A stretch of 64,000 nucleotides of DNA from Escherichia phage 121/2022-2B. Positions within the stretch are counted from its first letter, which is position 1; each line of letters starts with the position of its first letter. The translations under genes and the position numbers were made by a program. The notes beneath the pieces were generated by a model. It was not told the origin of the DNA. It made no database searches and saw nothing but the letters and a program-made list of their open reading frames with translations. Of this stretch, positions 14,594-15,334 are shown one piece after another. Location of the stretch: sequence record OR958571.1; one strand, 5' to 3'.

Positions 14594-14630
14594 ATAAATA
14601 CCCTTACCTTAAATAGATAAGGGTATTTAT
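14594..14630 (-). promoter_or_regulatory. stem-loop immediately upstream of the gene 49 start codon, enclosing the RBS
   Basis: ataaataccctta / taagggtatttat 13-bp inverted repeat with 12-nt loop; in T4 a 5' hairpin is known to mask the gene 49 RBS on long transcripts. Confidence 0.5.
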
Positions 14631-14635
14631 TATTT

Positions 14636-14812
14636 TTAAGTATTGTAAAACATTCGATGCAATCGTTTATACTGTCGAATCATCTTTTTAGTAGGACGAG
14701 AATAGGTTCCTACGCAAGTGGTCATATGAGGGTCCGTAGAATGTCCTTTAATAAAAAGTTTCCAAACCTTACCGCCATTTAACTTTTCAGTATAAACCAA
14801 TTCGGTTTTCAT
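14636..14812 (-). CDS. hypothetical 58-aa ORF (below the track cutoff) whose C-terminus duplicates that of pin
   Basis: Hand translation MKTELVYTEKLNGGKVWKLFIKGHSTDPHMTTCVGTYSRPTKKMIRQYKRLHRMFYNT; last 14 aa encoded by a repeat of the pin 3' end. Confidence 0.25.
   Translation of the reverse strand: MKTELVYTEKLNGGKVWKLFIKGHSTDPHMTTCVGTYSRPTKKMIRQYKRLHRMFYNT
14638..14683 (-). repeat. 46-bp direct repeat copy A (about 4 mismatches to copy B)
   Basis: aagtattgtaaaacattcgatgcaatcgtttatactgtcgaatc. Confidence 0.8.
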
Positions 14813-14848
14813 TAAAATGTCCTGTCAGAAAAAGAATTTTGAGTTTTT

Positions 14849-15334
14849 TCAAGTATTGTAAAACATTTGATGCAATCGCTTATATTGCCGAATCTTTTGG
14901 TCAGAAAAAGAAATTTGAGTTTCAAGCCATTCAATGTACTCTGCGGCAGCTTGCATCAGGTTACCTTCATAGCCATCGTTATTTTCTTGCGCAGCTAATT
15001 TAGCTAATGCGTATGAAATACGTTCACCTTGAAAAGCGGCTTTAGGCTTCTGAACAACTTGATTAGTTCGCTCTACAACTTCTTCAATTTCGCCATTTTC
15101 GACTGATTCAGTATTCCACAAGCACCAATACGTAATTGGCTTATCGTAGATGTTAATAATCTTTCCATCAGAAAGTTCAATTTCAATAATTCCAGTGTCA
15201 GGCTCTATATCATCTTCACATTCTTTTGCAAGTTCACGAACTTTAAAGACAGTACCTGCACTAAGTTCCGGCCAGTAATTACACAGCCCCGTATCAGCAC
15301 GATTAATTCTAAACCACTTATCTACTGTAATCAT
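14849..15334 (-). CDS. pin: probable protease inhibitor Pin (start set to ATG at 15334; track ORF starts at an upstream TTG)
   Basis: 161 aa from ATG 15334, the length and position recalled for T4 pin next to gene 49; no motif check possible. Confidence 0.45.
   Translation of the reverse strand: MITVDKWFRINRADTGLCNYWPELSAGTVFKVRELAKECEDDIEPDTGIIEIELSDGKIINIYDKPITYWCLWNTESVENGEIEEVVERTNQVVQKPKAAFQGERISYALAKLAAQENNDGYEGNLMQAAAEYIEWLETQISFSDQKIRQYKRLHQMFYNT
14851..14896 (-). repeat. 46-bp direct repeat copy B, encoding the pin C-terminus; itself flanked by a 22-bp direct repeat (about 14823-14844 and 14900-14921)
   Basis: aagtattgtaaaacatttgatgcaatcgcttatattgccgaatc; flanks gtcagaaaaagaattttgagtt / gtcagaaaaagaaatttgagtt. 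Confidence 0.8.

Follow-up and report, generated by a model that had tools for sequence, protein, structure and literature searches.

Nested direct repeats between pin and gene 49 of a T4-like phage as probable footprints of two successive rearrangements

Two nested pairs of direct repeats lie between pin, the gene for the Lon protease inhibitor PinA, and gene 49, the gene for endonuclease VII, in Escherichia phage 121/2022-2B (sequence record OR958571.1), of which we analysed one stretch of 64,000 nucleotides, referred to here as the window. The region is that of a T4-like phage (Tequatrovirus), with all genes at the locus on the minus strand, and the 1.3 kb surrounding the repeats is 98–99% identical to many deposited Tequatrovirus genomes, in which the same open reading frames (ORFs) carry the labels endonuclease VII, hypothetical protein and protease inhibitor. 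We believe that the repeats are probably the footprints of two successive rearrangements at the pin/ORF58/gene 49 locus of the T-even phages, ORF58 being the 58-codon frame between the two named genes. In the direction of transcription, the features are as follows.

14849–15334, minus strand: pin (PinA, Lon protease inhibitor), 161 amino acids, from the annotated ATG; named pin in phage 107 and T4.
14900–14922, minus strand: repeat R2, pin codons ..ETQISFSD, in its original place inside pin.
14896–14897, minus strand: junction J1, where pin codon 146 is fused in frame to ORF58 codon 45.
14851–14896, minus strand: repeat copy B, the grafted pin tail; pin codons 147–161 plus the first base of the TGA stop, from ORF58 codons 44–58.
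14844–14849, minus strand: junction J2, an A6 run linking the fused pin end (ACTTGA+AAA) to the relic (AAACTC...).
14812–14846, minus strand: relic of the ancestral pin 3' end, AAACTCAAAATTCTTTTTCTGACAGGACATTTTAA (= ..TQNSFSDRTF, then stop), 35 nucleotides, now non-coding.
14824–14846, minus strand: repeat R1, within the relic.
14636–14812, minus strand: ORF58, family DUF7279/phrog_3272 (RB32 ORF078c, RB69 ORF087c); from the ORF list, profiles, tblastn, substitution ratios and AF2 models.
14638–14683, minus strand: repeat copy A, the native ORF58 3' end; codons 44–58 and the T of the TAA stop; the homologues of other genera have the same tail.
14119–14592, minus strand: gene 49 (endonuclease VII), 157 amino acids; from the ORF list and from the endonuclease VII annotation in phage 107, T4 and others.

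A repeat search returned copies A and B as a 46-bp direct repeat with a spacing of 213 nucleotides, and R1 and R2 as a 23-nucleotide repeat with a spacing of 76 nucleotides. By direct count, A and B are identical at 41 of the 46 positions, and R1 and R2 differ by a single mismatch (22/23). A preliminary description of this DNA, made from the letters alone, had reported both pairs, and both were confirmed with small corrections: the longer has five mismatches rather than about four, and the shorter, which flanks copy B, is 23 bp rather than 22 bp long and starts one base later. Shuffling the 1.1-kb region 100 times gave a top 46-mer match of 31/46, compared with the 41/46 of the real sequence, and a pattern search of the whole 64-kb window found two copies only of each repeat, against a chance expectation of 0; the repeats are therefore local and not part of a dispersed element. 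A longer repeat stretching to 63 nucleotides, also returned by the repeat search, was rejected as A/T-rich chance similarity. Along the direction of transcription the layout is pin, R2, B, stop, A-run, R1, ORF58 body, A, stop, hairpin and gene 49. This is not a simple tandem duplication: the TRF output was empty, and the copies are interleaved (R2-B-R1-X-A) rather than placed head-to-tail.

The ORF58 protein, 58 residues ending in IRQYKRLHRMFYNT, matches Pfam DUF7279 (PF23945) with 62.7 bits (cutoff 24.5) over residues 7–56 and phrog_3272 with E = 3.4e-34 over positions 1–58 of 59, and because these matches are full-length the tail is part of that family's domain. ORF58 was located by tblastn in 357 phage records (359 places; one of the double records is an over-length assembly), and intact copies with at least 80% amino-acid identity, that is, at the Tequatrovirus level, occur in about 194 of them. 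Pairwise ratios of nonsynonymous to synonymous substitution (dN/dS) of 0.08–0.18 indicate purifying selection. The gene also directly precedes gene 49 in Gaprivervirus (RZ, VR25), Dhakavirus (JS98) and Mosigvirus (RB69, ST0, Shf125875), and thus in at least four Tevenvirinae genera, and a fifth, Gelderlandvirus, has a homologue within the same syntenic block in phage S16. All outgroup homologues bear a homologous basic tail, for example KKMIRQFKRLHRSFYNI or KKMIRQYKRFHRDFYNVY, and ST0 and Shf125875 have the homologue with its tail and no pin at all. The best AF2 model (pLDDT 81.6, the other four being around 53) consists of three β-strands and a basic C-terminal helix, residues 42–56, most of which is encoded by the repeated segment. 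The reading frame has an AGGA 7 nucleotides ahead of its ATG, and its TAA stop lies 2 nucleotides ahead of the gene 49 hairpin.

The preliminary description had suggested that the 58-residue ORF was either a new gene assembled from the duplicated end of pin or a pseudogene, and it is true that 13 of its last 14 residues are identical to the pin end and that T4 is without this ORF. Both suggestions now seem scarcely credible. A full-length member of DUF7279 and phrog_3272, intact in some 194 Tequatrovirus records and with the dN/dS values given above, has neither the look of a recent assembly nor that of a decaying gene; the same tail is found in Gaprivervirus, Dhakavirus, Mosigvirus and Gelderlandvirus, where Pin is tail-free or, as in ST0 and Shf125875, pin is absent, and the 40–80% identity of these outgroup homologues speaks against recent transfer from Tequatrovirus. 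On the evidence of these sequence comparisons, ORF58 is a genuine and conserved gene to which the tail belonged ancestrally; in Pin the tail is foreign.

In the Shigella phage sb4, ORF58 is cut short by a TGA within the tail (CAATACAAGTGATTG), and the annotation splits gene 49 into two coding sequences; these disruptions are either real pseudogenes or sequencing errors. A 40-residue, TTG-initiated ORF in an alternative frame (14812–14934, minus strand), ending ..LEKTQNSFSDRTF before its stop, runs through copy B into the remnant of the former pin C-terminus and is almost certainly spurious as a gene. As for what ORF58 does, a PDB profile search was empty, Foldseek returned nothing below E = 0.27 against the PDB and only the S16 homologue among viral models, with no structural neighbours outside the family, and PADLOC reported nothing. 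The searchable literature held no mention of DUF7279; its sole text match to ‘ORF087c’ refers to an Aeromonas phage gene and was rejected. The window ORF58 is thus a full-length member of a family (DUF7279/phrog_3272, with RB69 ORF087c and RB32 ORF078c) without known function.

Pin itself matches PF10465 with 164.2 bits (cutoff 27) over residues 4–141, and phrog_2167 with E = 1.8e-66 over residues 1–146 of the 146-position profile. The 161-residue protein, whose C-terminal end is IRQYKRLHQMFYNT, consists of a native core, residues 1–146, and a grafted tail of 15 residues: residues 147–161 match phrog_3272 positions 44–58, lie outside both Pin profiles, which stop at 141–146, and are not recognized as belonging to the Pin family domain. 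The native Pin of tail-free relatives has 148 residues and ends ..EYIEWLETQ(I/N)SFSDR(A/T)F; the pattern ..WLE.Q..F...F is conserved down to 44% identity and is present also in 57-residue Pin-like proteins of other genera. Around 150 Tequatrovirus genomes (148 residues there) and all outgroups examined have Pin without the tail. The AF2 model of Pin (mean pLDDT 65, below 50 in the tail) draws the tail as an extension of the last helix, and is too weak to describe how the tail packs. The locus had been described beforehand as a local duplication or insertion scar next to the gene 49 leader hairpin; a rearrangement scar it is, but the direction has to be inverted, ORF58 being the old gene and the end of pin the new part.

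A comparison of the pin–gene 49 interval across some 30 genomes distinguished six locus types (a slash marks a junction). An IMG/VR scan with the hairpin sequence gave five loci, which were used as extra examples and excluded from the counts.

Type i, ancestral: the pin stop overlaps the ORF58 start as TAATG in SP1, SA20RB, sb4 and pSs-1, and as TGATG in RZ (Gaprivervirus).
Type ii, T4 and T2: no ORF58; pin reads ..TCTGACCGA/ATGATTCAGCAATATAAGCG..ACTTGA and is followed directly by the hairpin.
Type iii, the window, phage 107, RB33 and an IMG/VR contig (L016): fused pin, then an A-run, AAACTCAAAATTCTTTTTCTGACAGGACATTTTAATG and ORF58.
Type iv, fPS-65: single copy, with the J1 of the window and a chimeric B/A tail.
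Type v, KRT47 and S1P5QW: native pin end, with ORF58 deleted between GTTTTAAT and GTTTTACAAT.
Type vi, Mosigvirus APCEc01: another clean loss, relative to RB69.

Mosigvirus RB69 has the ancestral gene order, but with a short gap between pin and ORF087c, and at ancestral loci ORF58 ends 2–10 nucleotides ahead of the gene 49 leader hairpin. The T4-type locus is 137 nucleotides shorter than the ancestral one (99 versus 236), a difference of the form 3n+2 that restores the frame. In the tail of fPS-65 the first three diagnostic sites are of B type and the last two (CGA, TAA stop) of A type, and by these sites fPS-65 is a B × A recombinant. Junction BLAST found the fused pin in 364 records and a 52-mer spanning J2 in 113 phage records, RB32 and RB33 included, which leaves about 251 single-copy records; the KRT47 type is present in 69 records, and the approximately 194 Tequatrovirus-level copies of ORF58 give about 81 genomes of ancestral type. 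The preliminary description had held that conservation of the arrangement in distant relatives, nucleotide for nucleotide, would indicate a functional element rather than a recent rearrangement; we found it in about 113 Tequatroviruses, at 96–100% identity, and in no other genus examined. The A-run at J2 varies in length, from A6 in the window to A11 in phage L14 (OQ992558), and 232Ecol030PP matches 51 nucleotides of the 52-nucleotide probe; either slippage or homopolymer sequencing error would account for this.

The native pin end was also seen to exist in two versions. In the six bases after TCTGAC, the alleles AGGACA (..DRTF, then stop) and CGAGCG (..DRAF, then stop) differ at five of the six positions, with flanks that are otherwise identical, in a comparison with SA20RB, pSs-1 and KRT47. 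The AGGACA allele (window 14818–14823) supplies a good AGGA Shine–Dalgarno sequence for ORF58, and the difference looks like a patch substitution affecting the ORF58 ribosome-binding site.

The history that we consider probable begins from an ancestral locus of the kind still seen in type i, in which a 148-residue pin ending ..WLETQ(I/N)SFSDR(A/T)F runs through the TAATG overlap into ORF58. In a first step, 137 nucleotides would have been lost and pin codon 146 (CGA) joined to ORF58 codon 45 (ATG); the fusion allele is present in existing genomes, and the proposed deletion would have removed most of ORF58 while leaving its C-terminal helix on Pin, to give the 161-residue PinA of T4 and T2. In a second step, which we would place after the first, illegitimate or microhomology-assisted recombination just past the fused-pin stop (ACTTGAAA...), with ..CTTGAAACTCAA.. 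near the pin end of a phage of ancestral arrangement (SP1-like, ‘RTF’ allele) as partner, would have brought the 35-nucleotide relic and a complete ORF58 behind the fused pin, resulting in the order R2-B-R1-ORF58 body-A.

The codons at J1 are CGA ATG ATT CAG in T4 and T2, CAA ATG ATT CGG in RB33, and CAA AAG ATT CGG in the window and RB51, and the aligned sequences read GACCGA/ATGATTCAG in T4 and T2, GACCAA/ATGATTCGG in RB33 and GACCAA/AAGATTCGG in the window, with the counterpart in the pSs-1 allele of ORF58 being ATGATTCGGCAATATAAGCG (ATG ATT CGG CAA TAT AAG CG). All of these variants are linked by single substitutions from a deduced CGA/ATG ATT CGG, so J1 represents one event, inherited by all fused pins. 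A formation of the T4 junction by two deletions, via an ACCGAAT match at the ORF58 start, was considered and dropped, GACCGA being native pin sequence in SA20RB and pSs-1. On the other side of J2, the relic is 100% identical over its 35 nucleotides to the coding 3' end of SP1 pin, and the ORF58 body of the window is 98.4% identical to that of SP1, whereas the 3' half of the window pin is 97.0–97.5% identical to T4 and fPS-65 and 94.5% identical to SP1. At J1 the base after GAC is that of the CGAGCG (‘RAF’) allele, whereas the bases behind R1 are AGGACA (‘RTF’), which shows the two R copies to be of different allelic origin. We favour an order in which the fusion came first and ORF58 was later regained from a phage with an ancestral locus, because T4 is then one event away and the window two, and because the R copies are different alleles, with pin nearest to T4 and fPS-65 and the relic and ORF58 nearest to SP1.

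The same layout might instead have arisen within one genome, with duplication preceding deletion: a tandem duplication or double template switch, running from R to the ORF58 stop, would have made J2, a deletion inside the first copy would have made J1, and single-copy T4-type loci would then be products of B × A deletion. Geometrically this is attractive, as the T4-type and ancestral-type loci are each one homologous deletion away from that of the window and the unit supposed to have been duplicated is bounded by CTTGAAA on either side in SP1, and fPS-65, which resembles such a product, indicates that B × A loss does happen. Against this, T4 would need three events rather than one, and a tandem intermediate, a genome with two complete copies of ORF58, was absent from the 359 places in 357 records. 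Moreover, the two alleles after the R copies (GAC-C.. versus GAC-AGGACA) are unexpected for an intragenomic duplication, and T4 and T2 hold the most ancestral J1 (CGA ATG), a TGA stop and a B-type tail throughout. Taken together, these considerations make duplication first unlikely.

Several observations nevertheless weigh against the order that we favour, in which the fusion came first. The J1 variant of the window (CAA AAG), as would suit a duplication-first history, also occurs in the single-copy phages RB51, wV7, slur03 and Kelasse; these would be explained either by secondary loss of ORF58 via B × A or by movement of J1 variants through ordinary recombination. J2 has three A's more than expected from a clean crossover in CTTGAAA, a heptamer common to both parents, and J1 shows no visible microhomology. 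The I/N polymorphism in R has a mosaic distribution, with R2 identical to R1 in RB33 and a mixture of allele types in pSs-1, and for this reason we dropped it as proof of two parents. The order of the first and second steps is one that we infer, and expression of ORF58 in this arrangement is predicted from its Shine–Dalgarno sequence and conservation. Whatever the order, the locus forms a compact natural series – ancestral, fused, fused plus restored, secondarily deleted and at least two further independent deletions – that documents how the T-even phages gain, lose and fuse small genes, with no new kind of genetic element.

The relic holds, besides R1, the AGGA Shine–Dalgarno sequence of ORF58 (14820–14823) and the old TAATG stop/start overlap, and the stop of the present pin is the TGA at 14849–14851. 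The relic now goes untranslated, and ORF58 would be initiated independently via AGGA instead of through stop/start coupling, as far as can be read from the sequence. The repeat pairs are potential substrates for homologous deletion, which would make the locus unstable in two ways: deletion between B and A (213 bp) would remove ORF58 and yield a T4-like single-copy locus, and deletion between R2 and R1 (76 bp) would restore the ancestral arrangement.

Beyond the repeats, the locus comprises the following features.

14591–14633, minus strand: gene 49 leader hairpin, a 19-bp stem (arms 14615–14633 and 14591–14609) with a 5-nucleotide loop.
14624–14631, minus strand: putative late-promoter-like box AATAAATA, read from the sequence and located at the hairpin's 5' base, with 7/8 bases as in the T4 late-promoter box TATAAATA.
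12305–14122, minus strand: nrdD, from the ORF list.
Farther upstream of pin, minus strand: small ORFs and nrdC, from the ORF list.

The 3' arm of the hairpin contains the gene 49 Shine–Dalgarno sequence and the first two bases of its AUG, both of which are paired in the fold; RNA folding gave −25.7 kcal/mol (z = −5.65), and 0 of 200 shuffles were equally stable. A stable stem that includes the Shine–Dalgarno sequence and start codon fits the type of leader hairpin that sequesters a ribosome-binding site. The hairpin is conserved in T4, RB69, RZ and VR25, and RB69 has a perfect TATAAATA at the same place as the box. Other annotators label the hairpin a terminator. Barth et al. (1988, Genetics 120:329; cited in PMC2988022) are said to have located the late promoter of T4 gene 49 in this hairpin and to have described the mechanism by which this late gene is masked on early transcripts. 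Similarly, read-through transcripts in the window would keep gene 49 masked, and transcripts from the predicted AATAAATA box would be without the 5' arm of the hairpin. An Rfam scan found nothing at gathering score; its sub-threshold matches, which fall on the hairpin (ohsC with 34 of the required 50 bits, RsaJ and the rnk leader), were put down to a general resemblance among hairpins and discarded. The stem in the window is a perfect 19 bp (..TAAGGGTATTTATT), and T4 and several relatives have one A fewer in the 3' arm (TAAGGGTTTATT or TAAGGGTTTTATT), giving a bulged stem.

Further observations concern the neighbours. nrdD is a single uninterrupted ORF of 605 residues in the window, and the T4 record joins two pieces across an intron with I-TevII; in SP1, SA20RB and sb4 the annotated nrdD is a shortened fragment adjoining gene 49. 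Upstream of pin, inside a small ORF, a strong sigma-70-like, early-type promoter match TTTACA-17-TATAAT (11/12; 15375–15403, minus strand) could drive pin and ORF58.

The search for Pin homologues showed other joinings of the same two families. A Logan contig from SRR20302901 (L032:1329-1990) encodes a Mosigvirus-type Pin ending ..EYIEYLERR/FHRDFYNVY, a second, independent fusion to the last nine codons of a DUF7279 gene of RB69-ORF087c type, at a shared ACGTTT; the same type of junction occurs in one deposited phage, vB_EcoM-ZQ3 (MW630116.1 161841-161886). This contig has a complete ST0-type DUF7279 gene upstream of pin, in the order DUF7279, pin::tail, gene 49. Two ENA metagenome contigs (L033:1501-2076 and L034:1501-2076) encode a 191-residue, full-length in-frame DUF7279::Pin fusion; relative to L032 they lack a T at TATTGATATG, whereby the stop codon is lost, and this fusion may be a one-base sequencing error, as one contig has a coverage of about 0.7.

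The ancestral stop/start coupling, the two independent in-frame tail fusions and the full-length metagenomic fusion are hints of a link between the two proteins. If the graft were not neutral, Pin and DUF7279 might work together, for example on Lon or a shared target, with the basic helix as the functional piece that was kept, and the 161-residue T4 PinA of all the biochemistry would be a two-gene chimera with a tail contributing to its activity. We put this forward only as a speculation that is rather improbable, and the recurrence of the fusion could also result from adjacency and from the need for deletions to halt before the essential gene 49 leader.

The origin of the tail bears on the one member of the family for which a function has been established. 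T4 PinA inhibits the E. coli Lon protease (Pfam PF10465, Inhibitor_I24; PMC8835725) and is the only Pin for which Lon inhibition is known. The window pin is collinear with T4 PinA over 161 residues, fused tail included, and the last 15 residues of the studied protein lie outside the Pin family domain. The only biochemically studied Pin thus ends in 15 residues from another gene, where the native member has 148 residues, which matters for constructs, for any PinA–Lon structure and for family profiles. The searchable literature contained no mention of T4 PinA being a chimera.

In T4-type phages, small ORFs that are not essential are gained and lost in plastic genome regions through recombination between short flanking repeats, a process known as PeSL shuffling, the PeSLs being dispersed cassettes with a strong sigma-70-like promoter and a terminator stem-loop (Arbiol et al. 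2010, PMC2839356; PMC4122927). The window repeats differ from these in being fragments of coding sequence without promoter or terminator, confined to one locus. No promoter-like or terminator-like site was found within 14594–14925: the nearest minus-strand promoter matches are at 15324–15352 (9/12) and the one at 15375–15403 noted above, and the sole inverted repeat is the gene 49 hairpin, outside the repeats. That the repeats are an element kept for itself, whether a PeSL-like cassette, a recombination site or a regulatory RNA of gene 49, might be suspected from the rearrangements in T4, in the Mosigvirus ZQ3 and its L032 counterpart and in KRT47, which independently kept the ORF58 3' end beside the gene 49 hairpin. 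However, the retained length varies across the deletion types (46, about 30, 6 and 0 nucleotides), so no fixed piece is required; with each repeat present in just two copies in 64 kb, no stem-loop inside the repeats and no Rfam match at gathering score, we regard a functional element of this kind as very improbable.

The gene 49 leader agrees with that of T4: the same 19-bp hairpin sequesters the Shine–Dalgarno sequence and AUG, with the late-promoter-like box in its 5' arm. It lies outside the duplication and forms the downstream limit respected by every deletion at the locus.

Deletions that fuse adjacent cistrons are classical in T4, the rII deletion r1589 being of this type, as are deletions between short direct repeats. 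The pin fusion is alike in that the 5' portion of a gene is linked, by a deletion that keeps the frame, to the 3' portion of its neighbour, yielding a hybrid protein, and the window locus resembles the short-repeat deletions in offering direct repeats as deletion end points. It differs from the rII case in being a natural allele fixed in hundreds of wild phages, T4 included, in that the deleted gene would later have been re-acquired, and in that no microhomology is visible at the fusion point. The nested repeats are scars that ordinary reshuffling has left in a phage genome; the kind of event is known, and here it combines a natural gene fusion, a partial duplication and repeat-mediated loss.

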